Origin: an uncultured Bacteroidia bacterium
Lineage (GTDB): Bacteria; Bacteroidota; Bacteroidia; Bacteroidales; F082
DNA: 64,000 nucleotides
Assembly: GCA_902801815.1 (NCBI GenBank)
Contig: CADCJT010000005.1
Coordinates: 38,099-102,098 of the forward strand
Direction: 5' to 3'
Shown: piece by piece, positions 3,063 through 21,712 of the stretch
How positions within the stretch are numbered: position 1 is the first letter of the stretch
Layout: the number at the start of each line of letters is the position of its first letter
Position numbers and translations under genes: made by a program
The notes under the pieces: model-generated
Told to the model about the DNA's origin: nothing
Database searches by the model: none
The model's input: only the letters and a program-made list of their open reading frames with translations

Positions 3063-3743
3063 TCAAAATGCGACCGACAGCCGCACGTAGTAGTCGGTGA
3101 TGACGTCCATCCTCGGACTGTTGATACCGAGGTCGGCATCCACTACGTCGATGGTCGACATGCCGAAGCTGAGGTAGGTGCGGTAGATCTTGAGACCGAT
3201 GGCACCACCTGTGTACAATCCCATGGATTGGTAGTGATAAACGCCTTCAGGGTCGTTGCAGGTCACCCTGCCCAAAGGCAACGAATAGCCGATACGTCCT
3301 TCGATGAAGGGGCTGATGGGCGAGTTGGGCAATTGGAGTTTCAGGTTGGCATAGATGGGCAGCGTTTGGAGGTAGGTCTCCTGCATGTTGTAGAACAGGT
3401 CGCAGTGCTCGCCGTAGGTGGCATAGTATTCTGCGCCTACACCGATGTTGGTGAGGTAGCCTAATTGGTACTCGGCCATGCCGCCTACGCTGAAGTGGTA
3501 GGGGATTTCGTGCATGATGATGGCACCTAAGTCGTCGTCGCCCAATTCGCCATACACATGGAAACGGAACTCTCCGACGGGATTATAGAGGCGAGGCGCA
3601 CGAGTTTCACGAGGTTCCACCACCGTTCTTCTGGGGTGGTGGCGATAGCGGTGATGAGGTGGGCGGATTTGTGCCTCGGCCGTCATCGACAGCACGAAGA
3701 GGAGGCACAGCGCTAACATGGTCTTTTTCATAGTCAATATCAT
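3063..3743 (-). CDS. Hypothetical secreted/outer-membrane beta-barrel-like protein
   Basis: 226 aa. Signal peptide MKKTMLALCLLFVLSMTAEAQ, alternating hydrophobic/aromatic pattern, C-terminal ...YVRLSVAF. The start may be the internal MKK at 3731. Confidence 0.5.
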   Translation of the reverse strand: MILTMKKTMLALCLLFVLSMTAEAQIRPPHHRYRHHPRRTVVEPRETRAPRLYNPVGEFRFHVYGELGDDDLGAIIMHEIPYHFSVGGMAEYQLGYLTNIGVGAEYYATYGEHCDLFYNMQETYLQTLPIYANLKLQLPNSPISPFIEGRIGYSLPLGRVTCNDPEGVYHYQSMGLYTGGAIGLKIYRTYLSFGMSTIDVVDADLGINSPRMDVITDYYVRLSVAF

Positions 3744-4416: not shown

Positions 4417-4424
4417 TATCTTTG
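4417..4424 (+). promoter_or_regulatory. Bacteroidota -7 box TATCTTTG upstream of udk, preceded by the 12-bp direct repeat TTCCGCATTCTG x2 (4377-4388, 4391-4402)
   Basis: Matches the TAnnTTTG consensus 23 nt before the udk ATG. The direct repeat was read directly. Confidence 0.45.
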
Positions 4425-4446: not shown

Positions 4447-5055
4447 ATGTTAGTCATTGGAATCGCAGGCGGCTCGGGCTCAGGGAAGACCACCGTCGTC
4501 AAGGAACTGGTTAGCCAGCTGCCAGAGAACTCAGTATCAGTCATTTCGCAGGATGCTTATTACTACGACAACGGCGACAAGACGCCCGAAGAGAAGAAGC
4601 AAATCAACTTCGACCACCCTGATGCCATCGAGTGGGACCTGCTCATCGACCATCTCGACCGCCTGAAAAAAGGCGAGGTCATCCCGATGCCTATCTATAC
4701 CTATGTCACCTGCGCCCGTTCGCAGGAGGTCATCTATGTGCATCCCACCGAGGTCATCATCGTGGAAGGCATCATGGTGCTGACGCAAGAGGAACTGCGC
4801 AATCGCATGGACATCAAGGTGTTTGTGGATACCGACAGCGACGAGCGCCTGATGCGCATCATCCGCCGCGACATCGCCGAGCGCGGCCGCACCTGGGAGG
4901 ACGTATTGCGCCACTACCAGACTTTCGTGAAACCCATGCACCAGCAGTTCATCGAGCCCACCAAGCGCACGGCCGACATCATCCTGCCCCGCGGCTCCAG
5001 CCCCGTGGTGGTCGACATCCTCGCTTCGAGAATCCGCATGCATTTGGGTAAGTGA
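4447..5055 (+). CDS. udk: Uridine kinase
   Basis: 202 aa. IGIAGGSGSGKTT P-loop, NFDHPDA, DTDSDERLMRIIRRD. Confidence 0.92.
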   Translation: MLVIGIAGGSGSGKTTVVKELVSQLPENSVSVISQDAYYYDNGDKTPEEKKQINFDHPDAIEWDLLIDHLDRLKKGEVIPMPIYTYVTCARSQEVIYVHPTEVIIVEGIMVLTQEELRNRMDIKVFVDTDSDERLMRIIRRDIAERGRTWEDVLRHYQTFVKPMHQQFIEPTKRTADIILPRGSSPVVVDILASRIRMHLGK

Positions 5056-5091: not shown

Positions 5092-6039
5092 ATGAAAAGA
5101 CAACTCTATTTTCTGCTAATGGCGTTGCTGATACCCTTTTTCGGCTGCGGCAATGCGACCTCGACCAGTGCTAGCAACAATTCAACGCAACCTGACGTGC
5201 AATATAATATGGCCATTATGGATAAAGGCCATGTGATCCTCTATGACCTGACCAACAGAATTGCAGCCCCAATCGAGGCAGAAACGGACTCTGTGTTTAA
5301 TATGGTTTTTGGATCAGATCGTGTCTATTATTCTGTGAAACAAGGTAATAAAACCTTCTTGAAATATGTGGTTCTTAACGATCCGGACCTCAAACCGCAG
5401 TTGGCTGCTGATTGGGAGGTACCCTACGATTGCTGTGTGGGCACGGCTTATTACTGTTTGGAAGCACCCGCGTTGCAGTATGTCCCGGAGCAAAACATCC
5501 TCGCCATGAACTATATGATGGAGCCCAACTACGGCTATTCCGAATACCGCATCTTTGACCCCGCCACCGGAAAGTCGGTCAATGCCATGGATTGGGAAGG
5601 AGACCTGACCTTCCTCAATTACGACATGTTCGATCCGTTTGAAGGCCAGTTTGCCTGTGCGGAGGACAACGGCGACTTGTACTATCGTCAAGGCGACGAC
5701 ATGATCTTCCTTAGCGACCGACTTGAATTTGAGGTTGACAGTGACACCCCGGACGAGCTTCCCTTTTTCGAGGTGCTCTCCATGGATCCGACTGGAAAAT
5801 ACGTTCTGTTCAAGGCAGCAACCACTTTTGGCGAGGATGATGATTATCATGGTCCACAATGTTATGCCTCGTTGGATGGCAAAGTGCAGAAAGTCTTGGG
5901 CACATACGATGAAAAGTATCCCGGCCAATGGTTGCCCGATGGTTCGCTCGTCTATGGCTCGGAAGGTATCCACCTGCTTGCCCCCAGTGGGAAAGACATA
6001 GTACTGTGTCCTGGCCGCTCCTTTGTGCTTCGCCCATAA
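5092..6039 (+). CDS. Lipoprotein, tandem paralogous family member 1 (single module)
   Basis: SPII lipobox LIPFFGC. Family motifs MAIMDKGHVILYD, EAETDSVFNMVF, YASLDGKVQKVLG, WLPDGSLVY. Confidence 0.7.
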   Translation: MKRQLYFLLMALLIPFFGCGNATSTSASNNSTQPDVQYNMAIMDKGHVILYDLTNRIAAPIEAETDSVFNMVFGSDRVYYSVKQGNKTFLKYVVLNDPDLKPQLAADWEVPYDCCVGTAYYCLEAPALQYVPEQNILAMNYMMEPNYGYSEYRIFDPATGKSVNAMDWEGDLTFLNYDMFDPFEGQFACAEDNGDLYYRQGDDMIFLSDRLEFEVDSDTPDELPFFEVLSMDPTGKYVLFKAATTFGEDDDYHGPQCYASLDGKVQKVLGTYDEKYPGQWLPDGSLVYGSEGIHLLAPSGKDIVLCPGRSFVLRP

Positions 6040-6075
6040 AGGCATTGTTTTTAATGGAACATAATAAATCACAAT

Positions 6076-7863
6076 ATGAAAAGACTTTATTGCATTCTCA
6101 TCACCATAATGGCAGTAGGGATCATGGGTTGTGACCACAACCCCAAGCCTGCCACAAACGTCAACTCCAAGGTCGATATGGTCATCATCCAACATGGGCA
6201 ACTGCAGTTCTACAACCTTGCGACCCAGAAGCTGGCGCCCTACGAAGCCGAAAAAGACAGCGTGGTCAACATGGCGTTCGACCGCAACAACCATCTGTAT
6301 TATACGGCTGCCCATGAACAAGACTTGGCACTGAAATGCATCGATCTTTCGGAAGCCAATCCCCAGCCCAAATTGTGCGCCAACTGGCAGCTGAAACTGA
6401 ACCAGATCACAGACTTTATGTTTGGCACCGGTGCCTCTGGCCTTGTCATGGATGCAAAAGAGGAAAACCTCTATTTGAATAGCTATGATTTCGTAGACGA
6501 GAATCATATTGATGCGGAAAGCTTCAACATGGTATCTGGGCAGACAAATGAAATGACGAATATAGAGTATAACGATGCCGTTTATGGGAAATATGTGCCG
6601 CTGAAAGGATTTTATTACGAACAGCCTAAGTTCTATTATGTGACGCCGGAAGGCAAATTCTGTCTCAACGACAAAATCGACTTTGCCACAATCTTCGATG
6701 AAAATGATTTGGAAGACATGTTTTTCTCTCCAGATTTTATCAGCTCTGACGGTAAGCAGATCATTTATGAAGCAAACGTTGAGATTGGCGAAGGCTGGGG
6801 TAATTATTGCCTTGCCTCGAGCGACGGACAGCATCAAAGCGTATTGAAGGATTCCGATACCTGGACTTTGAGCCCACAGTGGCTTGAAGACGGCACGCTG
6901 GTCTATGTGGGTCTGGAACCTAGACCGGAGGATGACCCAACATTTAATGAGGAATGGAACAACACCCGTCGTTGTATCAAGATCATAACTCCCCAAGGTG
7001 AGACTTCTGTTTTATGCTCCGATGCAGAAGAGTTTGCCCTCAATCCCATCGATAAGCCATTGGATCCGGTCAAGGAGAAACAAGCCCTTTTGGGTGGGTG
7101 CGACATGGCCATTTTTGATGAAGGAAAAGTGACTTTCTACAATTCATCCACCAATACCATCATTCCTTTCGTGGCCGAAGACGATTACGTGATTACTGGA
7201 GTCTTTGTTGATAATTCCTTTTATTACACCGTCGCTATCGGTGACGAATTGTATCTGAAACGGATCTATGCTGCAGACTATCTGAACTATCCCGAATTGC
7301 TCACCGATTGGGATCTGAAGCTGAGTGATTGTGTCAACGATGAATGTGAGAAGGTCGCTTCGATGGTGGGTTATCCAGGTTTCCAGGAGATAGGAATACT
7401 CCATGGGGTGGATCCCGAATATTGTAATTTCAAGGATTACAGATTTTATGACATTTATGCCCAAACCCAATGGGATGGTTGGGGCGATGACGGCATGTTG
7501 GGAAAGCATCTCGAAAATGAGGACTTGTTTAACGAGATTGCCCTGGGTTTGGAAGAGAAGGGAATCTCTGCAGTATTGTTAGAGATGAATCCATCCCATC
7601 AATATATTGCTTTCGGTGATATTAAAGACTGGATGGATCAAGACATAGTCAATATCCCAGGCCATGGCCCGCTTTGCTTCTCTAGTCTTGATGGCAAGAT
7701 GCAGGTGGCTTTGGAAGAAATCGACGTTGCCAATATGTACAACTGGGGCTGGCTGACCGATGACACGTTTGTCTTTTCCGATCGTGAAGGCATCAAGACG
7801 GTGTCTCTTGACGGCACCATAAAGGAGCTTTCGCCAGGCCGTTGGTTCGTGACGGGCTATTGA
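6076..7863 (+). CDS. Lipoprotein, family member 2 (two modules fused)
   Basis: Lipobox GIMGC. Module 1 runs QHGQLQFYN...WLEDGTLVYVG...CIKIITPQG. Module 2 starts at GGCDMAIFDEGKVTFYNSS and ends PLCFSSLDGKMQ...EGIKTVSLDGTIKEL. Confidence 0.75.
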   Translation: MKRLYCILITIMAVGIMGCDHNPKPATNVNSKVDMVIIQHGQLQFYNLATQKLAPYEAEKDSVVNMAFDRNNHLYYTAAHEQDLALKCIDLSEANPQPKLCANWQLKLNQITDFMFGTGASGLVMDAKEENLYLNSYDFVDENHIDAESFNMVSGQTNEMTNIEYNDAVYGKYVPLKGFYYEQPKFYYVTPEGKFCLNDKIDFATIFDENDLEDMFFSPDFISSDGKQIIYEANVEIGEGWGNYCLASSDGQHQSVLKDSDTWTLSPQWLEDGTLVYVGLEPRPEDDPTFNEEWNNTRRCIKIITPQGETSVLCSDAEEFALNPIDKPLDPVKEKQALLGGCDMAIFDEGKVTFYNSSTNTIIPFVAEDDYVITGVFVDNSFYYTVAIGDELYLKRIYAADYLNYPELLTDWDLKLSDCVNDECEKVASMVGYPGFQEIGILHGVDPEYCNFKDYRFYDIYAQTQWDGWGDDGMLGKHLENEDLFNEIALGLEEKGISAVLLEMNPSHQYIAFGDIKDWMDQDIVNIPGHGPLCFSSLDGKMQVALEEIDVANMYNWGWLTDDTFVFSDREGIKTVSLDGTIKELSPGRWFVTGY

Positions 7864-7890
7864 AAATAATAACAACAAATACCTACTACT

Positions 7891-9021
7891 ATGAAAAGAC
7901 ACATTTATTCTCTCCTAATGCTGCTGACGATGGGTTTGGCCAGTTGCAACATTACCATCAAACCCGACCCGAACAGTGTTACGACGAATGTCGATAGTGT
8001 GGAAGTTACCGTCAATATGAAAGTGTATGGAGATTCTATTGTCTCCCAACCTGTCGACCTCACGCAATGCGACATGGCGATGCTCGACATGGGCAGACTC
8101 TTCTTCTACAATACGACTACAGCGGTCATGACGCCTTTTGAGGCCGAAAAGGACAGCGTGGTGAACTGCGTCTTCACCGGCGACAACAAAGTGTATTATT
8201 GCGTGGCCACCGGGCCGAAGATCCTGCTGCGTTGCGTCGACCTGGAACAAGCCGACCCACAGCCGCAGGAGCTCGCCGACTGGGGCGTTCCCTACGAAAA
8301 ATGCGTGACCGAGACCTATGGTACGGTATCACCATTGGAGTATTACCGTGGAAAAAACACCTTGGGCCTGAATCACAACTTTAGTTGGGATGGCTATTGG
8401 TTCACCGACAAAAAGCTCTATAACATTGAAACGGGCGAAATCACAGATTGGACCTGGAAATGGGAAGAAGAATACCAGCGTATGCAAAACAGGGATGACG
8501 AAGAACAGACCGAGGAGAACTACCATTATATCAGCACGGCTAACGAGCTACAAGAGTATCTTACTCGGAGTGAAGGCCAGTATTATTTGACAGACGGCAA
8601 TGGCGACGACATTGCGTGCCTTACCGACCAGATTGACTTCAGCAAATATGTTAGTGATCCCGAATATGCCAGCGACGTGGACTTCGAATATGTCTCTTCG
8701 TCACCCGACAACTTGAAGGTGCTCTATATGGCTATCTTGGAATGGGGCGATTTCGCTCATGGCATCCTGGCTGTCTCCAGCACCGACGGCAAGCTTCAGA
8801 TACCGCTCGAAGACACCGACTGCACAGGCTTCACCGCTGAATGGCTCGACGACGGATCGCTGGTCTATGTCGGCGAGGAACCGCTCTCACCCGATGATCC
8901 CGATTACGATGCCAACTGGCATTATCGCGCCCATTGCATCAAGCGCGTCTATCCTGACGGACACATTGACATTATCGCCCATTGCGGCGAATTTGTGAAA
9001 AAACAATCCTTGCTTCATTAA
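7891..9021 (+). CDS. Lipoprotein, family member 3 (single module)
   Basis: Lipobox GLASC. Motifs CDMAMLDMGRLFFYN, EAEKDSVVNCVF, WLDDGSLVYVGEEP, CIKRVYPDG. Confidence 0.72.
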   Translation: MKRHIYSLLMLLTMGLASCNITIKPDPNSVTTNVDSVEVTVNMKVYGDSIVSQPVDLTQCDMAMLDMGRLFFYNTTTAVMTPFEAEKDSVVNCVFTGDNKVYYCVATGPKILLRCVDLEQADPQPQELADWGVPYEKCVTETYGTVSPLEYYRGKNTLGLNHNFSWDGYWFTDKKLYNIETGEITDWTWKWEEEYQRMQNRDDEEQTEENYHYISTANELQEYLTRSEGQYYLTDGNGDDIACLTDQIDFSKYVSDPEYASDVDFEYVSSSPDNLKVLYMAILEWGDFAHGILAVSSTDGKLQIPLEDTDCTGFTAEWLDDGSLVYVGEEPLSPDDPDYDANWHYRAHCIKRVYPDGHIDIIAHCGEFVKKQSLLH

Positions 9022-9032
9022 AAACTTACCAC

Positions 9033-10832
9033 ATGAAAAAAACACTATTCGTTCTCATTGCAGCATTGGCACTGGGTGTCATGAGCTGCGACCGCACCAT
9101 CCCTCGTGTCGATGTCGTGATCATCAATCACGGGCAGATGCAATTCTACAACCATGCGACACAGAAACTGACGCCGTATGAAGCCGAAACCGACAGCGTG
9201 GTCAACGTCTTATTCGACAAGAGCGACCATCTGTTCTATACGGCAGCCCATCAGCAAGCCTTGACGCTGAAGTCCCTCGATCTTACGGAATCCCATCCGC
9301 AACCCAAGGTATGCGCCAGCTGGAAGCTGACGTTGGATCAGATTACGGATTGGGTGTACGGAACGGGTGCCGAGGGTATGTTCTTGGATGAAGCCCTGGA
9401 AAACCTCTATTTGATGCGGGGTAGCTTCGAGGATGACGATCCTATCTATGCAGAGGCCTTCAATATCGCTTCTGGCACCAAAAAGGAATTGTCGTTCGAG
9501 GAATATGAACCTATCAGCGGCTTAAGCATCGCACTAGACCATTTCTATAGCGAACAAGAGAAGTTCTATTATGCGACTCCTGAAGGCAAAGTGTGCCTCA
9601 ACGATCAAATCGATATCCGTAGCGATAACCATGACAAGTTTGCATGGGGAGACGTGGAGTACCTTCCGGTAAAGATGAGTCAGGATGGAAAGAAGATTGT
9701 GTTTGAATATACCTATGAGGTAGAAGGAGGTTATGGACGATACTGTGTTGCCGACAGCGACGGACAGCATCAAACGTTGCTGAAAGATTCGAATATGTGG
9801 ACCATATCTCCCGAGTGGCTCGCCGATGGCTCCATGATCTATGTCGGAGGAGAACCCAGACCGGAAAGCGACCCGGATTACGATGCTGAATGGAACACGA
9901 CCCGTTATTGCATCAAGATCATCGATCCTCAAGGCGCGACTTCTTTGGTGGCTTCCGATGCCGAAGTTTATTATGTCAATCCGGTCGAGCCATTGAAGCC
10001 AAGAGAGAAACAAAACTCCATGTATGGCTGCGATATGGCCATCGTCGACAACGGAAAGTTGACGTTATACAACTCCACTGACAACACCTTCGTCCCCATG
10101 GTGATCGAAAAGGATCGCGTGGTCAGCGCCACCTTCGTCGAGGAAGACTGCTTGTATTACACCGTTGCGATTGGCGATAGACTCTATCTGAAAACGTTAT
10201 ATACGGCATCCTTCATGGGACCCTACATGGTCACCGACTGGGACCTGAAACTGGGCGATTGCTACTCGGAAAACTGCGGAATGGTTTCACCGATGCATCA
10301 TGTTATCGCAAAATCTGCCGACGACCCCTATGGTGTCCTGTTGGTCGGAATAGATTGTGGCTTGGATGAGGATTTGTGCGTGTTCAGTGGCGTCAAATAC
10401 TATAACAACGAAAGCGGTGTGATAACAGACTACTGGCCCGCAGAATACAACACCGACGATGAGTTTGCGGAGCGTGAAAAACTTATGAAAGAATTGAAGC
10501 TGAAGAACTTGTCAAGGTTCGATCTCAACATCCCTTCAGAGGTTGAGGAAAACAAACTGGAAGTGTATTCCATCTCGCCGTCCCACGATTGCATCGCCTA
10601 CGCCTATTATACGGAATTGGGCCCCAAAGGAGGAAGTGGCCCGCTTTGCTTCGCCACGGTCGATGGCAAGATGAAGATGGCCTTGGAAGGCACCGACGTC
10701 CAGAACATGTATTATGGATGGCTGAGCGACGGTCGACTGGCCTATTCCGACAAAGAAGGCATCAAGGCTGTTGCCGCTGATGGCACCATCACGAAGATTT
10801 CGGATGGCAAAATATTCGTAACCGTACATTGA
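9033..10832 (+). CDS. Lipoprotein, family member 4 (two modules fused; closest paralog of 6076-7863)
   Basis: Start moved to MKKTLFVLIAALALGVMSC (ATG 9033), which gives a lipobox. The ORF-track start at 8982 would overlap the previous gene. Module 2 starts at YGCDMAIVDNGKLTLYNS. Confidence 0.75.
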   Translation: MKKTLFVLIAALALGVMSCDRTIPRVDVVIINHGQMQFYNHATQKLTPYEAETDSVVNVLFDKSDHLFYTAAHQQALTLKSLDLTESHPQPKVCASWKLTLDQITDWVYGTGAEGMFLDEALENLYLMRGSFEDDDPIYAEAFNIASGTKKELSFEEYEPISGLSIALDHFYSEQEKFYYATPEGKVCLNDQIDIRSDNHDKFAWGDVEYLPVKMSQDGKKIVFEYTYEVEGGYGRYCVADSDGQHQTLLKDSNMWTISPEWLADGSMIYVGGEPRPESDPDYDAEWNTTRYCIKIIDPQGATSLVASDAEVYYVNPVEPLKPREKQNSMYGCDMAIVDNGKLTLYNSTDNTFVPMVIEKDRVVSATFVEEDCLYYTVAIGDRLYLKTLYTASFMGPYMVTDWDLKLGDCYSENCGMVSPMHHVIAKSADDPYGVLLVGIDCGLDEDLCVFSGVKYYNNESGVITDYWPAEYNTDDEFAEREKLMKELKLKNLSRFDLNIPSEVEENKLEVYSISPSHDCIAYAYYTELGPKGGSGPLCFATVDGKMKMALEGTDVQNMYYGWLSDGRLAYSDKEGIKAVAADGTITKISDGKIFVTVH

Positions 10833-10859
10833 AAAACAAACCTTAAATAATAATTAAAA

Positions 10860-11864
10860 ATGAAAAAAACATTCATTCTATTCATGATCGCCGCAGCGTT
10901 CGTAATGATGGGCTGCGACAACACTCAAAAAACCAACAATGCAAACCTGACCCAAGCTGAAGAGGTCGTCACCCTCAAGGGCTGCGACATGGCCGTCTTC
11001 GACAACGGAAAGGTGACGTTCTACAATTCATCCACTGACAAGTTTGTCCCGTTCGCCGACGAAAAGGATAACGTGATCAGCGGTGTTTTCAGCGATGAAA
11101 ACGAGTTTTATTACACTGTCTCGGTCAATGACGAGCTCTATCTGAAAAAGGTCGATCTCTCTGCTGACCAACCTGCTCCGGTCCAGATTGTCGATTGGGG
11201 ACTGAAGCTGAACGACTGTGTCGTCGACAGTTGCGAAAAGTGCGCATCAATGGTCTATTATTATATTGATGTCCCATTTGTCGGTATTGAATATAACATG
11301 GGCGAGATGTGCAAGGGTTTCATAGATAATAAATACTATATGATTGAAGGACAAACCCTGAGTGACGGCTGGCCGGAAGGCGTGGATGAGGGTATGGTTG
11401 CGTATCAGAATTTCATTGATAACGTGCATTTCATTGCTTTGCCCATCGAAGAAGGTGGAGAGGAGAAGCGTTACTATTACTGCGATGTAGATTTTGCCGT
11501 GTATCCTGAGGAAGAGTTGCCTAATCATCTGGTCTGCATCAGCGACAAAATCAATTTCCATGAAGGTAAATACGAGGGATATGAAGGCCAACCCGAGTTC
11601 ACGTACCTTGACCTCAGCCCCGAATCCGATTGCGTGGCATACGCTGCCATTATGGAATGGGGTCGCGGCGGCCGTGGTCCGCTGTGCTTCGCCACGCTCG
11701 ACGGCAAGGTGCAGAAGCTGTTGGCCTACGATGCTTGCTACGGATGGCTGAACAATAACAAGCTGGCTTTCTCCGACGACGAAGGCATCAAGACAATTGC
11801 TCCCGATGGTACCATCACGAAACTCTGCCCTGGCAGTAGGTTCGTGACCGTCAATGGGGAATGA
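10860..11864 (+). CDS. Lipoprotein, family member 5 (single B-type module)
   Basis: Lipobox VMMGC. Motifs GCDMAVFDNGKVTFYNSS, DELYLKKVDL, PLCFATLDGKVQ, EGIKTIAPDGTITKL. Confidence 0.72.
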   Translation: MKKTFILFMIAAAFVMMGCDNTQKTNNANLTQAEEVVTLKGCDMAVFDNGKVTFYNSSTDKFVPFADEKDNVISGVFSDENEFYYTVSVNDELYLKKVDLSADQPAPVQIVDWGLKLNDCVVDSCEKCASMVYYYIDVPFVGIEYNMGEMCKGFIDNKYYMIEGQTLSDGWPEGVDEGMVAYQNFIDNVHFIALPIEEGGEEKRYYYCDVDFAVYPEEELPNHLVCISDKINFHEGKYEGYEGQPEFTYLDLSPESDCVAYAAIMEWGRGGRGPLCFATLDGKVQKLLAYDACYGWLNNNKLAFSDDEGIKTIAPDGTITKLCPGSRFVTVNGE

Positions 11865-11883
11865 ACCAATAAAAGAGGTTGAC

Positions 11884-12873
11884 ATGAAAAAGACTCTATT
11901 GCTTCTCTTTGCCGTCCTGGCGTTTGGACTGTCGGGTTGCGACCGCAATCCGTTCCCTACCCAGACCAAAACGTCAGATGCTGTTGCTCCTCTTAAGGGC
12001 TGCGACATGGCTATCTTTGACGACGGAAAGGTGACCTTCTTCAACTCACGCACGAACTCGCTTATTCCTTTCGCTGACGAGCAGGATCGTGTAATCAAAG
12101 GCGTTTTCCTCAACGAAAACGAGTTTTATTACACCGTCGTGATTGATGATGAGCTCTATCTGAAAAAGGTCGACCTCTTGGCTTCTCATCCCGCTCCAGT
12201 CATGCTCACGGACTGGGACCTGAAACTCAGTGATTGCTTCGATGACAATTGCGGTTATGCCCCTATGTTGAGGTACTCCAACGTCCCGATGATTGGAATT
12301 CAGCATAACTTGGAAGAGATGTACTGCGAGTTTGTGGATGACAGATACTATCTGCCAGACGATAATACGAAGAGCGAAGGATGGCCCGATGATGTCAACA
12401 TGGGCGACGGCGCCGACGAGCAGGAGATTCAGCTTTTGAACGACCAAGACCTGTTCAAACAAGTAGATGTGGAGGTGGAAGGTGCCGACGAGGACAAGAG
12501 TTACTATTACTATGTTCCGGATGAGTCGAGTGATGAGCGAATCTGCATCAGCGACAAGATCGACTTTGATAGCTTCAAAGGTGAGTATTCTTATGAGCCT
12601 CAGTTTGAACTTCTTGGGTTGAACCCTCAGCGTAACTGCGTTGTCTACGGTGCGGCTGTTGACTTTGGTCATGTCGGCTACGGACCGCTTTGCTTCGCCA
12701 CGCTCGACGGCAAGGTTCAGAAGGCTTTGTGCTACGATTATAATGGTGCTTGTTTTGGCTGGCTGGCCAACGGCAAACTGGCTTATTTCGGTAATGACGG
12801 CATCTATGTGGTTTCGCCCGATGGGACGGAGCAAAAGATTGCGTCACCCCATGAGTTTGTGACCAGCTATTAG
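11884..12873 (+). CDS. Lipoprotein, family member 6 (single B-type module)
   Basis: Start set at MKKTLLLLFAVLAFGLSGC (ATG 11884). Motifs GCDMAIFDDGKVTFFNS, DELYLKKVDL, PLCFATLDGKVQ. Confidence 0.72.
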   Translation: MKKTLLLLFAVLAFGLSGCDRNPFPTQTKTSDAVAPLKGCDMAIFDDGKVTFFNSRTNSLIPFADEQDRVIKGVFLNENEFYYTVVIDDELYLKKVDLLASHPAPVMLTDWDLKLSDCFDDNCGYAPMLRYSNVPMIGIQHNLEEMYCEFVDDRYYLPDDNTKSEGWPDDVNMGDGADEQEIQLLNDQDLFKQVDVEVEGADEDKSYYYYVPDESSDERICISDKIDFDSFKGEYSYEPQFELLGLNPQRNCVVYGAAVDFGHVGYGPLCFATLDGKVQKALCYDYNGACFGWLANGKLAYFGNDGIYVVSPDGTEQKIASPHEFVTSY

Positions 12874-12902
12874 CACTGAATCAACTGGCTTAAAAACAAA
12901 AA

Positions 12903-12928
12903 AACCTCCGCGAAAACGGAGGTTTTTT
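12903..12928. terminator. Rho-independent, bidirectional terminator (CCTCCG-cgaaaa-CGGAGG flanked by an A-run and a T-run)
   Basis: Hairpin plus TTTTTT read directly. It ends the lipoprotein array and abuts the tRNA 3' end. Confidence 0.8.
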
Positions 12929-12929
12929 G

Positions 12930-13000
12930 TTGCCCAACCAGGATTCGAACCTAGACTAACTGATCCAGAGTCAGTTGTGCTGCCATTACACCATTGGGCA
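12930..13000 (-). tRNA. tRNA-Gln (anticodon CUG)
   Basis: The reverse complement TGCCCAATGGTGTAATGGCAGCACAACTGACTCTGGATCAGTTAGTCTAGGTTCGAATCCTGGTTGGGCAA folds by hand. It gives a 7-bp acceptor stem, anticodon stem ACTGA/TCAGT with loop CTCTGGA, and T arm CTAGG-TTCGAAT-CCTGG. No CCA is encoded. Confidence 0.9.
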
Positions 13001-13013
13001 TCCAAATCGGCTG

Positions 13014-13021
13014 CAAAAATA
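13014..13021 (-). promoter_or_regulatory. -7 box TATTTTTG (minus strand) driving tRNA-Gln
   Basis: The reverse complement of CAAAAATA lies 14 nt upstream of the mature tRNA 5' end. Confidence 0.55.
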
Positions 13022-13112
13022 CGCTTTTTTTGAATGTTGCAACTAAAAACGAGGATTTTTTTTTCGATTTTTTTTGCTTGGCGAGAATGGAGGCGGGATA
13101 AGCCCCTCATTC

Positions 13113-13901
13113 TCAGTATTTGTTGAAACGCGATCCCCAATTGTACGACAGCATGAAGGTGACAAAGAGCCAGCGGTCGCGTTCCGAGTCGATGATGGAG
13201 ACGCCCATGGGGAAGCACTCTACCTTGACGTCGACGTTGATGGCTTGCACCGAGGTGCGCGACTTGGCGAAGTCGAAGCTGAGACCCAACGAGGCATGGG
13301 CGCCAGGCGAGAGCTTGCTCTCGCCAAGGCCTTTGGTGAAAGCCGATCGTCCCAGGATGTCGATGCCTTGCTCGAAGGTCTGCTCTTGCACCGACTCCAC
13401 ATAGCCACCCGAGCCGTTGGGGATGTAGGTGACCACTTGGTAATAATAGGGCTTGAGCCAAGCCAACGATGCGCCAAATTCGTAGGTCCAGCGCGTCTCG
13501 ATGCCGCCCCAATAAGGCTTGCCGAAGATGCGCCGCTCCTCGCCGTAGCCGAAGCGGGCCACGTAGACGTAGTTCAGCTTACCATAGACGAAAGGACGCA
13601 TGTTGACGGTGGAGATGTTCAAGGTCTTGATCTCCTTGAGCGAGCGCAGCGACACCACCTCGGCCTCCCAGTTGCGCGTCAGGTTGATGCTCTTGATGCG
13701 CCCTATCTTGAATCCCGCGCCGAAGCCCCGCGAGTGGATGGCCACGTTGAAGGTGTTCTGGTGGTTGTAGACCAACTTCTCCTCCAAGGGCTTGTCGTCA
13801 TCGCTCTGGATGTCGATGTTTTGCGCAGGCAACAAAAAAGCGCACGCTCCGAAAAGCGTGAGCATGAGGATGCGCAATAGGCGTTGTTTGAGGGCAGTCA
13901 T
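13113..13901 (-). CDS. Hypothetical outer-membrane beta-barrel-like protein
   Basis: 262 aa. Signal peptide MTALKQRLLRILMLTLFGACAFLLPAQ, alternating beta-strand pattern, aromatic C-terminus ...RFNKY. Confidence 0.5.
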   Translation of the reverse strand: MTALKQRLLRILMLTLFGACAFLLPAQNIDIQSDDDKPLEEKLVYNHQNTFNVAIHSRGFGAGFKIGRIKSINLTRNWEAEVVSLRSLKEIKTLNISTVNMRPFVYGKLNYVYVARFGYGEERRIFGKPYWGGIETRWTYEFGASLAWLKPYYYQVVTYIPNGSGGYVESVQEQTFEQGIDILGRSAFTKGLGESKLSPGAHASLGLSFDFAKSRTSVQAINVDVKVECFPMGVSIIDSERDRWLFVTFMLSYNWGSRFNKY

Positions 13902-13924
13902 GGCATTGGGTTATATGTATCACA

Positions 13925-13970
13925 GGTCCCTGAGCCCTGAGCCCGTCGAAGGGCCGAAGGGCCGTGCACC
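13925..13970. repeat. Solo/half copy of the CCCTGAGCCCGTCGAAGGGCC element (same family as the ptrB insertion at 62238-62295)
   Basis: GGTCCCTGAGCCCTGAGCCCGTCGAAGGGCCGAAGGGCC read directly in the intergenic region. Confidence 0.6.
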
Positions 13971-14163
13971 CAACACCTAAATTAATAGCGCGTCTCCTTG
14001 ATGTATTTTGACGATTCGCCGTAGGCCGGGCAGGTTTTGCTTGACCCACAAGAAGTCAGGATAATGCCTGAGACAAAGGCGATTAACAGGGCGATGACAA
14101 GTTTTCTCTTCATAGAAATCAAATTTGATTTGCAAAGTAACGCATTTTTCTCCGAAAAATTGC

Positions 14164-14171
14164 CATCTTTG
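14164..14171 (+). promoter_or_regulatory. Imperfect -7 box CATCTTTG upstream of ung
   Basis: 17 nt before ATG 14188. One mismatch to TAnnTTTG. Confidence 0.35.
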
Positions 14172-14187
14172 CAGAAAAATTAAAGAA

Positions 14188-14865
14188 ATGGAAGTAAAGA
14201 AACCCAATATCGACGAAAGCTGGTACCAAGTGCTGCGGCCGCAGTTCGAGGCACCCTATTTCGCCGACCTCAAGTCGTTCCTCGTGAGCGAGAAGCGGCA
14301 GTATGCCGTCTATCCCCCTGGTCCTTTGATCTTCAACGCCTTCAACCTCACGCCTTTCGACAAGGTGAAGGTGGTCATCTTGGGTCAGGACCCGTACCAC
14401 GGCCCGGGACAGGCCCACGGCCTCTCGTTCTCGGTGCCCGACGGCGTGCCTTTCCCGCCCAGCCTGCAGAACATCTTCAAGGAGCTGCACGACGACCTCG
14501 GCGTGCCTATGGCGCGCTCTGGCAACCTCGAGAAGTGGGCTAGGGAAGGGGTGCTGCTCCTCAACGCCTCGCTGACGGTGCGCGCCGGACAGGCCGCCTC
14601 GCACTCGCGCCACGGCTGGGAACAGTTCACCGACGCCGCCATCCGCGCCCTGTCGGAGCAACGCGAGCACCTCGTCTTCATCCTCTGGGGCAACTACGCC
14701 ATCGCCAAGCAGGCCCTGATCGACCCGTTCAAACACTTGATACTGAAGTCAGTGCACCCGTCGCCCCTCTCCGCCAGCCGCGGCTTCTTCGGGTGTCATC
14801 ATTTTTCGCAAACGAATAATTATTTGATACAACACGGAATAGAACCTATTGACTGGAGTTTATAA
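14188..14865 (+). CDS. ung: Uracil-DNA glycosylase
   Basis: Start set at [12 protein letters not shown]. Motifs [22 protein letters not shown] and HPSPLSA. Confidence 0.93.
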
Positions 14866-15024
14866 TGGGATTGCTTCGCAAGAAATCTTTAAAAAATCGA
14901 AAATAAAATCGATCAAAAATCTCTTTTCTACGTCTTTTTACTATGGTGGTGTTTTTGAAAGATTTTAAAAATGATTTTTGATAGATTTCTTGTCCGTAGG
15001 ACAATTCCCCAAAACAAAAGAAAA

Positions 15025-15606
15025 ATGAAACAAATCGTATTTGCCACCAATAATAAGAACAAACTGCGCGAGATGCGCGAAATCATGGAGGGCCTCTACG
15101 AGGTCCTGAGCCTCGACGACATCGGCTGCCACGACGACATTGTCGAAGACGCCGACACCATCGAAGGCAACGCCAAGATCAAGGCGGACTTCGTCACCAA
15201 CAAGTACCATGTGGACTGTTTCTCCGACGACTCCGGCCTTGAAGTGGAGGCCTTGGGCGGCGCCCCAGGCGTCTATTCGGCCCGTTATGCCGGTGAGCAT
15301 TGTACCTATCAGGACAACGTCGACAAGATGTTGGCGGCCATGAAGGGCCAGACCAACCGCAAGGCGGCCTTCCGCACCTGCATCGCGCTGAACCTGGATG
15401 GGAAATCCTATTTCTTCGAAGGCCGTTGCGATGGTCGCATCACTGAGGAGCAACGCGGCACCGATGGCTTCGGCTACGACCCCATCTTCCAGCCCGACGG
15501 CTACGAGCAGACCTTCGCCGAACTGGGCCACGAAGTGAAAAACGCCATCAGCCACCGTGGCAAGGCCACGCGTAAGCTGATCGCGTTTTTGAAGGACTTG
15601 GGTTGA
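15025..15606 (+). CDS. rdgB: dITP/XTP pyrophosphatase (non-canonical purine NTP pyrophosphatase)
   Basis: Start set at MKQIVFATNNKNKLREM. Motifs SDDSGLEVEALGGAPGVYSARYAG, FGYDPIF, ISHRGKA. Confidence 0.9.
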   Translation: MKQIVFATNNKNKLREMREIMEGLYEVLSLDDIGCHDDIVEDADTIEGNAKIKADFVTNKYHVDCFSDDSGLEVEALGGAPGVYSARYAGEHCTYQDNVDKMLAAMKGQTNRKAAFRTCIALNLDGKSYFFEGRCDGRITEEQRGTDGFGYDPIFQPDGYEQTFAELGHEVKNAISHRGKATRKLIAFLKDLG

Positions 15607-15802
15607 GTCGTAAACACAAAAGAAGGCATCCGTCATTCATAGTCAACCGGTCGGTAGTGCGCCGTGCGGCCTAAGCCGTACATTCGGATGACAACGTGCT
15701 GAGCCTGCGCCGTGCTGTTCATCGTGAACGGGTGCTGCCGGCTCCGGGCAACGATCAGTGGTGGGGGTTCGGTTCGCCCTACAAATGCGGATGCCTTGTG
15801 GT

Positions 15803-16258
15803 TCAGACCAGCTCGGTCTGGAAGTTGAGCGCCTGTATCTCCATGTCGAGTTGGCGCAGCTGTGCGGAGCATTCGTCCACCTTCTTGCCGATGGCTTTCA
15901 CGTCGACCACGGTCACCGTCTTGATCTCCGAGCGCGAGTAGCGGTCCTGTCCCGCCGAGGCGGTGTCGAAGATGCTGCGCAGGTTGCTGACACGCATGGT
16001 CAGCACGTCCTTGCGGGCCATGAGTTGGGTGAGGGTGACGCCCTGGGCGTTGGTGGTCTTCATGTTGGTGGCGTTGATGCGCCAGATGAGGTCTTCGAGC
16101 TGCGTGAGGCAGGCGTCGAGTTCCTTCATCAGCTCCGTGGGCTCTTCCGAAGGCGCGTCGCCTTCCTGCACCTTCACGTTGTTTTGTATGCGCTGTCCCA
16201 GCTGTTGGATGCGCTTTTGCAGGTCTTTCCTGATGCTTAATGCTTCTGCGAGTTTCAT
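15803..16258 (-). CDS. DIP1984-family (septicolysin-like) protein
   Basis: Start set at MKLAEALSIRKDLQKRIQQL. KVQEGDAPSEEP and DRYSRSEIKTVTVVDV match my recollection of this family. The N-terminal extension in the ORF track was rejected. Confidence 0.7.
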   Translation of the reverse strand: MKLAEALSIRKDLQKRIQQLGQRIQNNVKVQEGDAPSEEPTELMKELDACLTQLEDLIWRINATNMKTTNAQGVTLTQLMARKDVLTMRVSNLRSIFDTASAGQDRYSRSEIKTVTVVDVKAIGKKVDECSAQLRQLDMEIQALNFQTELV

Positions 16259-16370
16259 AGGGGATGGATTTAACTCCGTTGATTCTTCGAATTTGGCGCA
16301 AAGATAAGAAAAAACTGGGAAAGGGGAACGTTCTAGCTTTGTGGTTTGTGGCCGCATTTTGTGCCCCAAA

Positions 16371-16409
16371 CCTTGCGGGTTGAGAAAAATGTTGTATTTT
16401 TGCAGCCAG
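16371..16409 (+). promoter_or_regulatory. Promoter cassette copy P0 (CCTTGCGGGTT-GAGAAAAATGTTGTATTTTTGCAGCCAG; -7 box TATTTTTG at 16395-16402)
   Basis: Shares CCTTGCGGGTT...GAAAA.GTTGTA.TTTTGCAG with the cassettes at 31291, 31743 and 31939. Confidence 0.5.
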
Positions 16410-16568
16410 AAATAAGTCAGGAATCAGGTATGACCTTCCGAAAGTCCGCGCGGAGGCCTATCGTTTCAGTGCGACTTACCTCCTGCATTCTGCGGCAACA
16501 CTACGGGTGGAAATCGGGATGAGAGAACACCGACAACAGGACTCTTAAGATTTCCATCCGTTTTTGTT
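16408..16568 (+). ncRNA. Candidate ~160-nt small RNA (unclassified)
   Basis: Begins just after the -7 box. Ends with an 11-bp stem GGGTGGAAATC (16505-16515) / GATTTCCATCC (16549-16559) followed by GTTTTTGTT. No ORF. Confidence 0.3.
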
Positions 16569-16632
16569 ATGTCTTAATGACCGTGATGCAATACTGCACT
16601 TTATCGTTTGTCCATCCTTGCGTTGGCATGGA

Positions 16633-16690
16633 CCAGCAGCCATGTCATGCCAACGCGGGCAAGTGCGTGGATGGGCATCTATGGCTGCGG
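16633..16690 (-). repeat. GC-rich palindromic ~57-bp repeat, full copy (inverted orientation)
   Basis: CCAGCAGCCATGTCATGCC...GGGCATCTATGGCTGCGG is the reverse complement of the GCAGCCATAGAT...CATGACATGGCTGCTG family. Confidence 0.8.
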
Positions 16691-17045
16691 CATTTTTTCC
16701 TTCCTTTTCCTTGATGAAAAGTAAGCGAAAAATCAAGGCCGCCTCCATCGGACCTCCCCGCGGCTGTCTAAACGCCTGACTTTCAGGTCGGGTAGTGCCT
16801 ATCGGCAAACGCAAGCGCCCCTCTGTGAAAGTCAACCGTTTAGCCATCCCTTGCGGGCGCTTCCCCGCCCGGCGGCCCCGCCTCCCCGCCCAACCCAGCT
16901 GAGTTTTGGCATTCCCGCTCGTGGCATACGGGCGGGAAACAGCACTCCAACGGACAACGCCCTCCCTTTACCCTCATCGCGGACCTCCCCCTTTCAAAGG
17001 GGGTGCCCGAAGGGCGGGGGATTAAGGGTCCGTGATCTCCTAAAG

Positions 17046-17714
17046 TTACCCGATTATTTCCTTATAAAGCATTACCCCTTTCGCCGTCAGCAGGTATTTC
17101 TGCCTTGGATGGCGGGGCGTGTCGGGATATAAAAGACGGACGAAACCTTTTGAAATAGCGGGGTTAAGGTGAACTTTTAAAAAATTGTCTCGTCCCTTAA
17201 GTTCCATACCCATCATCATTTCTTTTACGGATAGTTTCTGATGTCCGATAACTTGTAAAAGACCAATTACATCTGGGCTAACATAACCAAACTTGTCCTG
17301 TACTTGTCCTGCGCTTGTCCCTAACTTATGGGGTACTTGTTCGGGTACTTGTCCTGAACTTATAGGGGTGCTTGTCGGGTCTACTAGATTAGGTTGTCGT
17401 TCAAACTGCCGACCTCTTCTGCATTCTTCTTTATTCACGGATTCAACTCTGGTGTATGTCTGATACTCTTTCCATGCAGTCCTGTTCTTTCGCTTCTTGG
17501 CATAATGCTTGTCAAGTAGGTCAGACACTTCATCCATGGTCAAATCACCTTCGATGTTTTTGCGTGCGAGTTCAAGAAGATAGTCCGACACCTGCAATCC
17601 ATCCACGGCCTGCAGTCCGATGGCCGTACTCCAAGCATAGGCGGCCTCGCGCTGCGCGGGCTCTCCTTGCCGTATATATTCATCGAAGTCTATGTAATGC
17701 TGCTCTTTGGCCAT
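17046..17714 (-). CDS. VbhA-like antitoxin domain fused to a Fic-associated C-terminal wHTH domain; no Fic (HPFxxGNGR) core
   Basis: The N-terminus EPAQREAAYAWSTAIGLQAVDGLQVSDYLLELARKNIEGDLTMDEV resembles VbhA-type Fic inhibitors. The C-terminus has a degenerate QVP repeat plus SVKEMMMGMELKGRDNFLKVHLNPAISKGFVRLLYPDTPRHPRQKYLLTAKG. Confidence 0.55.
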   Translation of the reverse strand: MAKEQHYIDFDEYIRQGEPAQREAAYAWSTAIGLQAVDGLQVSDYLLELARKNIEGDLTMDEVSDLLDKHYAKKRKNRTAWKEYQTYTRVESVNKEECRRGRQFERQPNLVDPTSTPISSGQVPEQVPHKLGTSAGQVQDKFGYVSPDVIGLLQVIGHQKLSVKEMMMGMELKGRDNFLKVHLNPAISKGFVRLLYPDTPRHPRQKYLLTAKGVMLYKEIIG

Positions 17715-17796
17715 GGCGTGTCATCGTGAATCAGGCTTCAAAGATACGAAATTTTGGTGGATTATGGGCGGTTTTTTCTCGTTTTTATTCAAGGCT

Positions 17797-17850
17797 CAGC
17801 AGCCATGTCGTCCTGATGTAGGCAACGACCAGCAGCCATGTCATGCCATC
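17797..17850 (-). repeat. Two truncated tandem copies of the GC-rich palindromic repeat
   Basis: CAGCAGCCATGTCGTCC... and CCAGCAGCCATGTCATGCCATCC read directly. Confidence 0.6.
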
Positions 17851-17881
17851 CTTTCTGCCCATGTCATCCCCACGTTGGCCT

Positions 17882-17938
17882 CAGCAGCCATGTCATGCCA
17901 ACGCGGGCATGTGCGACGGCGGGCATCTATGGCTGCGG
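17882..17938 (-). repeat. GC-rich palindromic repeat, full copy (inverted orientation)
   Basis: CAGCAGCCATGTCATGCCAACGCGGGCATGTGCGACGGCGGGCATCTATGGCTGCGG. Confidence 0.8.
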
Positions 17939-18234
17939 TTTTGTCTCCATTGTCCGGCAATAAGGAAAGAAGAGGATAGGCTTTCGCATACCCTAGGCAA
18001 GGAGTTGGCAAGGAGTTGGCAAGGTGTAGGCAAGGAGTTGGCATACTCAACCATACCCTTTGAGTATGGCTAGAGCGTAGGAAGGGCGAAGGAAAAGCGA
18101 GAGAAGCCTGTGCTGAGAAGCATTGATGGAGTGTTTGGCGGTGCGGGGAGTTTCGTGGAGGATGGTTTTTGGGTATTGAACTTGGAAAAATGAAAAAAAT
18201 AGCAGTAAAATGAAAATTATTCAAATTTATTGTC

Positions 18235-18242
18235 TATTTTTG
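18235..18242 (+). promoter_or_regulatory. -7 box TATTTTTG upstream of the AAA ATPase gene
   Basis: Perfect TAnnTTTG 28 nt before ATG 18270. Confidence 0.5.
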
Positions 18243-18269
18243 CAGGAAATCTACAAAATCAATAGTCAA

Positions 18270-19499
18270 ATGATACTCAAAATTGAATTTGAAAACTTCT
18301 TCTCGATAAAGGAGCGTATAAGAATTGATTTTAGGGCTGCCAACATCAACACTGCCCTTGCCCGTGAACTTAGCCATAATGTAATGGAGTGGAAAGGTGT
18401 GCCTATACTCAAGACAATAGGATTATTTGGCCCCAACGCATCAGGCAAGTCGAATATTCTAAAGGCTATCGTTTTTTGTTGCAGGATGGTTTTGGATTCC
18501 CATCAATATAATGAGGGTAAGATATTCGATTTCGAACCTTTTAAGTTTGATGGTTGGCAGGAGAAGCCAAGTAAGTTTCTTATTGATTTTGTTTGTGATA
18601 ATGTGGAATATGAGTATTCTTTTGAACTTACCCGTGAGCGCATCATCAGTGAGAGTTTGTATCATTATCCATTGGGCAGACGAGCAAAGATGTTCGAACG
18701 CAGGGCCGGTGACAAGTATAGTTTTGGCACAGGCATCATGGCAAAGCCGTCGGACGTGGCAGTTAACACCAGTGAGAAGAACCTCTTCCTTAGCCGAGCC
18801 AGTTCCATGAATCGCGAGTTTGCACAAAAGCTCTATCGCTATTTCCTAAACCAGTTCCTGCTTGGATTGGTGAATGTAAATGACATGGTGGTATTGGATA
18901 ATTTCAACACCTATAAGCCGCTAATTCTCAAGGCACTTGAAATATGCGATACGGATATTACCGACATCGAGGCAAGGACAGAACAAGTTCCAGCTCCTGT
19001 TGTCGTTCCTGGTCAACAAGAACTGTCATATAGATTGGTAGACGTTCTCCGCTTTAAGACATTTCATCGTTATCAGAAGGATGTTATGTTTGACATGGAC
19101 ATGGAAGAGTCTAACGGAACAAGGAAACTATTCCAAATACTTATTCGACTTCTTGATGTGGTCAGGAACAAGAAAAGCATACTGATGGATGAATTTGACA
19201 TGGGGCTACACACGCGTTTGGCCGATTTCGTTCTCGACTTGATCCATGCTTCAGAAAGCAGTCAGTTGTTGTTTACCTCACACAACACGAACCTCATTGA
19301 CGTAAAAAGATTGAGACGTGACCAAATTGTGTTTGTCAACAAATCCGAAAATGGGGTTACGGAAGTTTATTCCTTGTACGACTTCAAGGATTTCCGTGAA
19401 AACATGGATGCAGAGAAGGGTTATATACAAGGCCGTTTCGATGCTATACCTTATGTAGACTCGTCTGTTGAGAGTGTCCAACAATTGCTGGAGGGTTAA
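18270..19499 (+). CDS. AAA_21/ABC-type ATPase (RloA/AbiLi-like, defence-associated)
   Basis: Start set at MILKIEFENFFSIKE, after the promoter. Walker A GLFGPNASGKSNILKAI, Walker B ILMDEFDMGLH, LLFTSHNTNL. Confidence 0.8.
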   Translation: MILKIEFENFFSIKERIRIDFRAANINTALARELSHNVMEWKGVPILKTIGLFGPNASGKSNILKAIVFCCRMVLDSHQYNEGKIFDFEPFKFDGWQEKPSKFLIDFVCDNVEYEYSFELTRERIISESLYHYPLGRRAKMFERRAGDKYSFGTGIMAKPSDVAVNTSEKNLFLSRASSMNREFAQKLYRYFLNQFLLGLVNVNDMVVLDNFNTYKPLILKALEICDTDITDIEARTEQVPAPVVVPGQQELSYRLVDVLRFKTFHRYQKDVMFDMDMEESNGTRKLFQILIRLLDVVRNKKSILMDEFDMGLHTRLADFVLDLIHASESSQLLFTSHNTNLIDVKRLRRDQIVFVNKSENGVTEVYSLYDFKDFRENMDAEKGYIQGRFDAIPYVDSSVESVQQLLEG

Positions 19500-19501
19500 C
19501 C

Positions 19502-19707
19502 ATGGCAAGTAAAAGAGAAAAGGCTCCGTCGAAAAGAATGCGTAGAATTGCGCTTGTTATTTGTGAAGGATGACGCTGTTATTGTAAGCCAGCACGCCAG
19601 ACTTCGAGAACATGGCGAAAGTCATAGAATGGGCGAAAAGGATGGAGGATTACAAGAATTCTTCTTTTTCGGTTTATCGGTTGATTGAGGGGATGGAGAA
19701 GGGATAA
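19502..19707 (+). pseudogene. Remnant of an RloB-like partner gene (N-terminal 23 codons then a stop; a C-terminal tail in another frame)
   Basis: The ATG is 2 nt after the ATPase stop. It encodes MASKREKAPSKRMRRIALVICEG*, and RloB proteins begin ...R-(I/L)L(I/V)VCEGEKTE. 19612-19707 reads NMAKVIEWAKRMEDYKNSSFSVYRLIEGMEKG*. Confidence 0.45.
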
Positions 19708-19749
19708 ATTCCACTTTTGCAATATCTTGTGAGAGACTGAAAAATTGTT

Positions 19750-19757: not shown

Positions 19758-19783
19758 CGTCAAATTATGAAGGGAGAAATACT

Positions 19784-21711: not shown

Positions 21712-21712
21712 A

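Follow-up and report, generated by a model that had tools for sequence, protein, structure and literature searches.

The closest described relatives of the proteins reported here are the propellers of the TolB C-terminal/PD40 superfamily, which are six-bladed and extracytoplasmic and consist of four-stranded blades with repeated DG turns. We analysed a 64-kb window (the whole stretch of DNA under study, 64,000 nt of contig CADCJT010000005.1 from an uncultured Bacteroidales bacterium) and describe within it a tandem array of six genes, g1 to g6 (5092-12873), whose predicted products share these traits. TolB provided both the best single-domain Foldseek matches and the sole Protein Data Bank (PDB) sequence matches to the array family. 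The array proteins differ from TolB in lacking its N-terminal domain, in being lipid-anchored instead of soluble, in lying outside the tol-pal operon, and in occurring as single or tandem double propellers within multi-gene arrays.

Two consecutive propellers per chain, as found in two of the array proteins, are also present in the YWTD pairs of LRP6 and in BT4663 and BT4673, the periplasmic sensor domains of Bacteroides hybrid two-component proteins. There, the propeller pairs serve ligand binding, and these structures are the top Foldseek matches of our g2 model. However, identity to them is 8-12% (no sequence relationship), global template-modelling scores (TM-scores) are low at 0.16-0.26, as expected when the orientation of two domains differs, and the array family is without EGF modules, kinase or response-regulator parts. 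PorZ, a type IX secretion system (T9SS) component, is likewise a double-propeller envelope protein of Bacteroidota, and some members of the array family adjoin genes for T9SS cargo. PorZ has seven-bladed propellers and, at its C terminus, a sorting domain for the T9SS, and is not known to have a lipobox, whereas the array proteins have one, and a Pfam search of all six gave no match to the sorting domain Por_Secre_tail. Lipid-anchored propellers of Bacteroidota are represented by BamI and by BtuG, which is reported to be a B12-binding surface protein with BtuB as its partner. Each of the two is exposed on the surface, occurs as a single copy, and is encoded or assembled together with its partner (BamA, BtuB), in contrast to the array family, in which the export signal is absent, no partner gene is found and copy number is variable. 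BamI is a six-bladed, non-catalytic partner of an envelope complex (PMC12578637); it was not among the top 50 fold matches of our g3 model.

The array belongs to a previously unannotated family of lipid-anchored PD40/TolB-like beta-propellers comprising four old classes. We are highly confident of the fold, the family and the evolutionary dynamics as described below. For the role of these proteins, the overall best explanation, to which we assign slightly better than even confidence, is that they are non-catalytic, envelope-anchored propellers that probably face the periplasm, with A modules acting together with B modules and specificity located in blades 3-4.

Modules, classes and fold

Six open reading frames (ORFs), all on the + strand, were confirmed where the original prediction had placed them, and encode eight homologous modules of ~250-320 aa each. 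The array and the two conserved features that bound its site are:

5092-6039 (+): g1, 315 aa, one g1-type predicted propeller module, lipobox FFGC
6076-7863 (+): g2, 595 aa, two modules, lipobox IMGC
7891-9021 (+): g3, 376 aa, one predicted six-bladed g3-type propeller, lipobox LASC
9033-10832 (+): g4, 599 aa, two-module A-B protein, lipobox VMSC; module B from Cys333 (nt 10029)
10860-11864 (+): g5, 334 aa, single B-class module, lipobox MMGC
11884-12873 (+): g6, 329 aa, single B-class module, lipobox LSGC; start taken at MKKTLLLL
4447-5055 (+): udk (uridine kinase), upstream anchor of the site, 96-99.5% aa identity across syntenic loci (context)
12929-13000 (-): tRNA-Gln (CTG), conserved downstream anchor of the site (context)

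A gap of 36 nt separates udk from g1, and the intergenic gaps from g1 to g6 are 36, 27, 11, 27 and 19 nt. All six proteins start with a basic/hydrophobic signal, followed by the signal peptidase II lipobox listed above. They are true paralogs, as all-vs-all BLASTP was significant for every pair (E 1e-12 to 0). The pairs g2-g4 (E=0) and g5-g6 (2e-98) are both 47% identical, the C-terminal halves of g2 and g4 share 34-39% identity with g5/g6 (~1e-50), and the weakest pair is g1 against the C-terminal half of g4 (1.9e-12). Both g2 and g4 are two-module fusions. In g2, module A spans approximately residues 33-322, followed by a linker (323-341) and by module B from Cys342 (nt 7099). The second modules open with GGCDMAIF at g2 residue 340 and with YGCDMAIV at g4 residue 331. 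An opening motif CDMA...FYN had been proposed for every module; it is exact in five of the eight and looser in g1 (YNMAIMD..LYD), g2A (VDMVII) and g4A (VDVVII).

The original prediction read the array as A, A-B, A, A-B, B, B. This is too simple: the A-B fusions and the B singles stand, but g1 and g3 form classes of their own. Core identity is 57% between g2A and g4A and 39-51% within the group of g2B, g4B, g5 and g6; g1 and g3 are each just 26-35% identical to all other modules (core-to-core). On hidden Markov models built from the two halves of A-B proteins, both g1 and g3 score higher on B than on A. We placed 86 modules, drawn from 30-odd loci, in a neighbour-joining tree without support values, which contains four clades: B (the C-terminal halves of fusions with the g5- and g6-type singles), g3-type as the sister of B, A (the N-terminal halves of fusions), and g1-type as the sister of A. 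As judged from sequence comparison, the array reads g1-type, A-B, g3-type, A-B, B, B.

The models indicate that each module of 250-320 aa is a roughly six-bladed PD40/TolB-like beta-propeller, and the earlier guess of such a fold holds at the level of fold and superfamily (AlphaFold2, Foldseek and profiles). An AlphaFold2 model of g2, built with 52 homologs, has a predicted local distance difference test score (pLDDT) of 87.5 and a predicted TM-score (pTM) of 0.83, and is all-beta with runs of four strands. The model of g3 (pLDDT 81.8) shows approximately six four-stranded blades; residues 189-223 form an acidic insertion that is helical and in part disordered. In the models, the propeller begins 15-40 residues past the lipobox Cys. 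Foldseek with the g2 model retrieved tandem propellers, namely the YWTD pairs of LRP6, tricorn protease and the sensor domain of BT4663 (E ~1e-13). The best PDB matches of the g3 model were TolB propellers; Kelch propellers with six blades and designed ones came next. Over the two models, Foldseek gave a probability of 1.00 for these three kinds of six-bladed propeller and for YWTD propellers. A viral structure library returned generic Kelch/WD40 propellers only.

Profile searches point to the same superfamily. Pfam PD40 (PF07676) was matched by 13 of the 52 close homologs (best 5.6e-7) and, at E ≤ 1, by none of the six window proteins. When the family profile was compared with 1.84 billion representative proteins, large proteins were reached via one or two blades (E 1e-19 to 1e-13); seven of these were scanned with Pfam, and all are multi-PD40 proteins that aligned through profile positions 218-284. 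Among PDB sequences, the A-B profile gave weak single-blade TolB matches (E 0.003-0.02), and the g3-type profile gave nothing. The six proteins matched no curated propeller-lipoprotein family in Pfam or NCBIfam at E ≤ 1, and the 52 homologs matched none of DUF5128, TolB_like, DUF5050 and the BF3164-type six-bladed families at E ≤ 0.1. TolB proper (TIGR02800) was considered and rejected: it was hit by g4 alone, at 11.1 bits against a cut-off of 343 and without the N-terminal TolB domain, the array is not in a tol-pal cluster, and its proteins are lipoproteins.

In the loci examined, a complete A module is always followed by B sequence, and the two are fused except once, in locus L023, where an unfused A gene is followed 8 nt downstream by an unfused B gene. 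Both this arrangement and the high pTM of the g2 model suggest that A and B act as one unit, which would be a double propeller. A recurrent ~484-aa form was also observed, comprising a full A module and just the first ~140 residues of a B module (L009 8521-9981, L011 8522-9982, L013 8523-9983 and L035 6527-7981; proteins P0097, P0109, P0115-P0118 and P0136). This form is conserved over many contigs, in every case a short way upstream of a complete A-B gene, which makes it a probable functional variant rather than a pseudogene.

The conserved residues of the fold also bear on catalysis. The array proteins could be enzymes of the envelope with a six-bladed propeller as scaffold, acting as a lactonase, phosphotriesterase, sialidase or phytase-like hydrolase or as a lyase, with a metal site in the central channel. 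Several acidic and polar residues are near-invariant over the four classes (g3 D61, E86, D88, D299, Q303 and D310), and the strong acidity of the proteins is compatible with Ca2+ binding. However, no catalytic family of Pfam or NCBIfam was matched, no propeller enzyme heads the fold matches, in which the TolB, Kelch and YWTD binding propellers come first, and several of the conserved residues belong to the repeated DG-turn motif typical of PD40 blades, which suggests a structural role. We consider an enzymatic function highly improbable. For a non-catalytic binding role, sequences and models together offer about an even chance; the array proteins would then be binding modules tethered to an envelope membrane.

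Variation between strains at the udk/tRNA-Gln site

In line with the original prediction, gene number and alleles at this site differ between strains. We compared congeneric genomes. Most of their flanking proteins share 75-100% identity (96-99.5% for udk), and flank identity over the copy-number series is 90-99%. From udk to tRNA-Gln, the family genes number:

One family gene (g3-type only): L024 and L026-L029, the 'Candidatus Limimorpha' loci
Two family genes: L006
Three family genes: L002
Four family genes: L004
Five family genes: L003 (RUG13948)
Six family genes: the window, L001 (RUG382) and L005 (RUG11296)

A tblastn search for pseudogene remnants in the short spacers of the one-gene 'Candidatus Limimorpha' loci and of the three-gene locus L002 found none. 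In L003, the array's end and tRNA-Gln are set apart by an insertion of ~8.5 kb (12229-20420). Within it are an ORF of 2167 aa that resembles T9SS cargo, with a GLUG motif and a weak Por_Secre_tail match, a stray B-module fragment of 111 codons (19133-19465), and an ORF of 258 aa with no family match.

Whole modules can be lost within a gene. The window and RUG382 are about 96-98% identical, and RUG382 lacks the following segment:

6154-7035 (+): g2 module A segment, 882 bp, 294 codons, in frame

The deletion junction has a 4-nt microhomology (TGCC), and the product consists of the signal peptide, the linker and module B. This deletion shows a route from A-B genes to single-B genes.

Two evolutionary claims of the original prediction, recent expansion and diversifying selection, are unsupported or unproven. 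The duplications are old: the paralogs share 26-57% aa and 66-74% nucleotide identity, and orthologs of every class exist in further genomes. The recent events are instead gene gain or loss at a fixed site, in-frame module deletion and mosaic allele replacement. Gene-wide ratios of nonsynonymous to synonymous substitution (dN/dS, Nei-Gojobori) never exceed 1, with 0.2-0.5 for array genes and 0.01-0.15 for the flanks. In sliding windows, a single 40-codon stretch of g6 reached an omega of 7.6 on a dS of 0.02, which we judged not significant.

The large differences between strains are recombinational replacements of alleles or cassettes with saturated dS. In g3, the ends are 93-95% identical while residues ~163-293 are just 45-68% identical with saturated dS, and this divergent centre between near-identical ends indicates that a central cassette was replaced by recombination. 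Between the window and L005, dS is 0.01-0.06 for g1, g2, g4 and g5, 0.70 for g3 and 0.26 for g6, compared with 0.25-0.47 for the flanks. The low values of g1, g2, g4 and g5 mean that either most of the array was recently passed between diverged strains by recombination or the metagenome-assembled genomes (MAGs) are chimeric. Positions conserved across the classes lie in blades 1-2 and 5-6, with almost none in blades 3-4, and blades 3-4 together with the acidic helical insertion are hypervariable. The variable blades would contact a partner that is itself variable across strains or environments.

These dynamics raise the idea that the array is a set of recombination-shuffled specificity modules with which rumen Bacteroidales recognize or neutralize partners that vary between strains, for example toxins of competitors, proteins of phages or variable proteins of the envelope. 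The scaffold of blades 1-2 and 5-6 would be fixed, the cassette of blades 3-4 would be swappable, and propellers would be gained, fused and deleted as units. We regard this as improbable; if true, the shuffled repertoire would be an undescribed modular system of envelope recognition or immunity.

In another proposal, the array would be an accumulated set of specificities, in the style of orphan-immunity islands, and its proteins would serve in the periplasm as immunity proteins or decoys against interbacterial toxins that act on the envelope. Their predicted periplasmic, lipid-anchored location would suit this, as would a variable region framed by a conserved scaffold, and variable gene content combined with recombinational spread, the array dS far below flank dS against L005 being suggestive of recent transfer. 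On the other hand, genes for toxins, type VI secretion, MACPF proteins or recombinases are not found next to any array, PADLOC gave 0 matches on the six proteins, and these are large for immunity proteins. Moreover, conservation of the four classes over long distances is a better fit to a housekeeping-like accessory role. We therefore rate immunity as slightly less probable even than the shuffled repertoire. PHROGs searches of the six proteins gave signal-peptide-level noise only (E ≥ 0.002).

Cellular location, neighbours and proposed role

Among 252 retrieved homologs, 229 have a lipobox-type signal, and the consensus after the lipobox in these members is C-(D/N)-(R/N/H)-x-P-K-P. The export signal of Bacteroidetes lipoproteins consists of a polar or basic residue and then at least two acidic residues after the lipidated Cys, for example K-(D/E)2 in Capnocytophaga and SDDDD in B. 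fragilis (PMC5080379). Two adjacent acidic residues at positions +2 to +6 occur in 0 of the 229 members, and 218 have at most one acidic residue there (0-1 in the window proteins), so that the earlier designation as surface lipoproteins is unproven. The mature window proteins have a pI of 4.1-4.5 and contain many Cys (7-13 per protein) and aromatic residues, a composition that fits an extracytoplasmic, disulfide-forming compartment. The lack of the acidic export signal favours proteins that face the periplasm. We hold this sequence-based placement at a little below even confidence, because the export rule is uncalibrated in this lineage.

A different placement extends the original prediction: proteins exposed on the outer face of the outer membrane under diversifying or frequency-dependent selection, acting as variable antigens, phage receptors or decoys, or as nutrient- or host-binding molecules. 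Gene gain and loss, allele replacement and a hypervariable centre are typical of surface molecules, and dN/dS is 3-10 fold above that of the flanks. Surface propeller lipoproteins also exist in Bacteroidota, for example BamI (PMC12578637), and the export-signal rule is not absolute. However, the family lacks the adjacent acidic residues, no gene-wide dN/dS exceeds 1, and no TonB-dependent transporter, SusC/D or phage gene adjoins the array. Surface exposure with such roles thus appears unlikely to us, and a periplasm-facing orientation remains our preferred reading.

A conserved E-x-D-S-V loop lies between blades 1 and 2 (g1 residue 66, g2 residue 61, g3 residue 88 and g4 residue 54). D-S-V is nearly invariant in g1-type, A and g3-type modules; B modules retain the D but not the S/T. 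The loop fits the general O-glycosylation sequon of Bacteroidetes, D-(S/T)-(A/I/L/V/M/T), and is a candidate for conserved glycosylation.

A second lineage carries the family at another site, with a tsaC-like gene downstream of it. In seven of these loci (L009, L014, L017, L018, L019, L031 and L032), a gene encoding Peptidase_M28 and Por_Secre_tail domains lies just before the lone A-B gene or the array, either immediately, within ~150 nt or with a slight reading-frame overlap. The array proteins could accordingly be accessory or anchoring partners of T9SS cargo, such as an M28 aminopeptidase with a C-terminal sorting domain (CTD), and act as a propeller that presents or gates substrates. Propellers are so used in S9 peptidases and in tricorn protease, and in L003 the 2167-aa CTD-bearing ORF directly follows the array. 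However, the upstream neighbour in the second lineage varies, being a glycosyltransferase in L037, a porin in L033 and further family genes in L035, while the tsaC-like downstream anchor is constant across contigs, and the 64-kb window has no M28 homolog. We therefore downgraded M28 adjacency from a functional lead to local synteny. CTD cargo genes are also common in these genomes, and we consider a T9SS partnership very unlikely, only marginally above the enzymatic alternative.

A protein of ~520 aa with a TPM domain (PF04536) follows the A-B gene in two loci of the second lineage, L033 (9892-11442, 13-nt gap) and L035 (9896-11464, 4-nt overlap). The window is without an equivalent. From its position, the TPM-domain protein could be a partner of the family.

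Our favoured explanation, non-catalytic propellers that face the periplasm and bind through blades 3-4, has several points against it. The term non-catalytic rests on negative evidence, no partner gene or ligand speaks for a binding role, and the near-invariant polar residues could make up a metal-binding or active site. The rule on the export signal comes from Capnocytophaga, Bacteroides and Flavobacterium, and the acidic signal is found in 0 of 24 other lipoproteins of the compared loci, leaving the rule uncalibrated here. With regard to structure, the Foldseek TM-scores are modest (0.3-0.47), and blade counts and the A-B interface were read from secondary structure and pTM alone. The module tree lacks support values, and all comparison genomes are MAGs, so that some of the mosaicism could be binning or assembly chimerism.

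Genomic context, distribution and significance

Two further features relate to transcription of the array:

4417-4424 (+): candidate promoter, TATCTTTG, matching the Bacteroidetes -7 box, 30 nt upstream of udk
12899-12928: bidirectional intrinsic-terminator-like hairpin with a 13-bp stem, an A-run on the 5' side and a T-run on the 3' side

Between 4200 and 13000 on the + strand, the pattern TAnnTTTG has a single non-coding match, at 4417-4424; two others lie inside g2 and g6, and the intergenic gaps of the array have none. As the sole nearby non-coding -7 box is upstream of udk, co-transcription of the array with udk is plausible and probably occurs; transcription of udk and g1 to g6 would start at the udk promoter and end at the hairpin. 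A two-box Bacteroidetes promoter pattern had no match near the array, and a sigma-70 scan found 13 promoters against 10.9 expected, which is no excess under a model ill-suited to Bacteroidetes. The hairpin that had been noted as a terminator 3' of the array is real, and its position between the array and the convergent tRNA-Gln means that it can terminate both.

The array is preceded in the window by rsmI, a gene resembling those of outer-membrane proteins (OMPs), an FMN_bind gene and udk, and followed by tRNA-Gln, ung and rdgB; none of these neighbours ties it to a pathway. Two proteins with signal peptides and no Pfam match, both encoded on the - strand (3063-3743 and 13113-13901), flank the locus and resemble small OMPs. 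They share 75-80% identity among related genomes, compared with 94-99% for udk, ung and rsmI.

Elsewhere in the window, a low-GC island (18210-28247; GC 0.37-0.41 against ~0.5 elsewhere) carries defence genes. An AAA_21 ATPase (18210-19499) lies beside an HNH_4 nuclease (19745-20842), resembling the PtuA/PtuB pair of Septu, and is followed by a methyltransferase-HIT fusion (20830-21711). A Wadjet set comprises DUF3375/JetA (21713-23170), an SbcC-like JetC (23720-27136) and JetD (27120-28247), and the short gap between JetA and JetC could hold JetB.

The family is lineage-restricted, as had been proposed: all genome matches are MAGs of uncultured ruminant-gut Bacteroidales, including 'Candidatus Limimorpha', and the hosts are cattle, sheep, goat, yak and buffalo. 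It is small, comprising at least 77 representative clusters (50% identity) at E ≤ 1e-30 and 209 at E ≤ 1e-10. It is also uncharacterized, with no Pfam or NCBIfam match and the name 'hypothetical protein' in every source, and our literature search found no description of it.

What is new here is a gain in annotation, a PD40-like lipoprotein family, and not a new mechanism, the kind of protein being familiar. The family is abundant in metagenomes of ruminant-gut Bacteroidales and yet has no curated model. Its syntenic series of one to six genes, with fused and unfused A and B modules and the deletion of a whole propeller, is useful for studying how multi-domain envelope proteins are assembled and reshuffled. 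Should the variable blades prove to bind partners specific to strains, the locus would mark the ecological differentiation of rumen bacteria at strain level.

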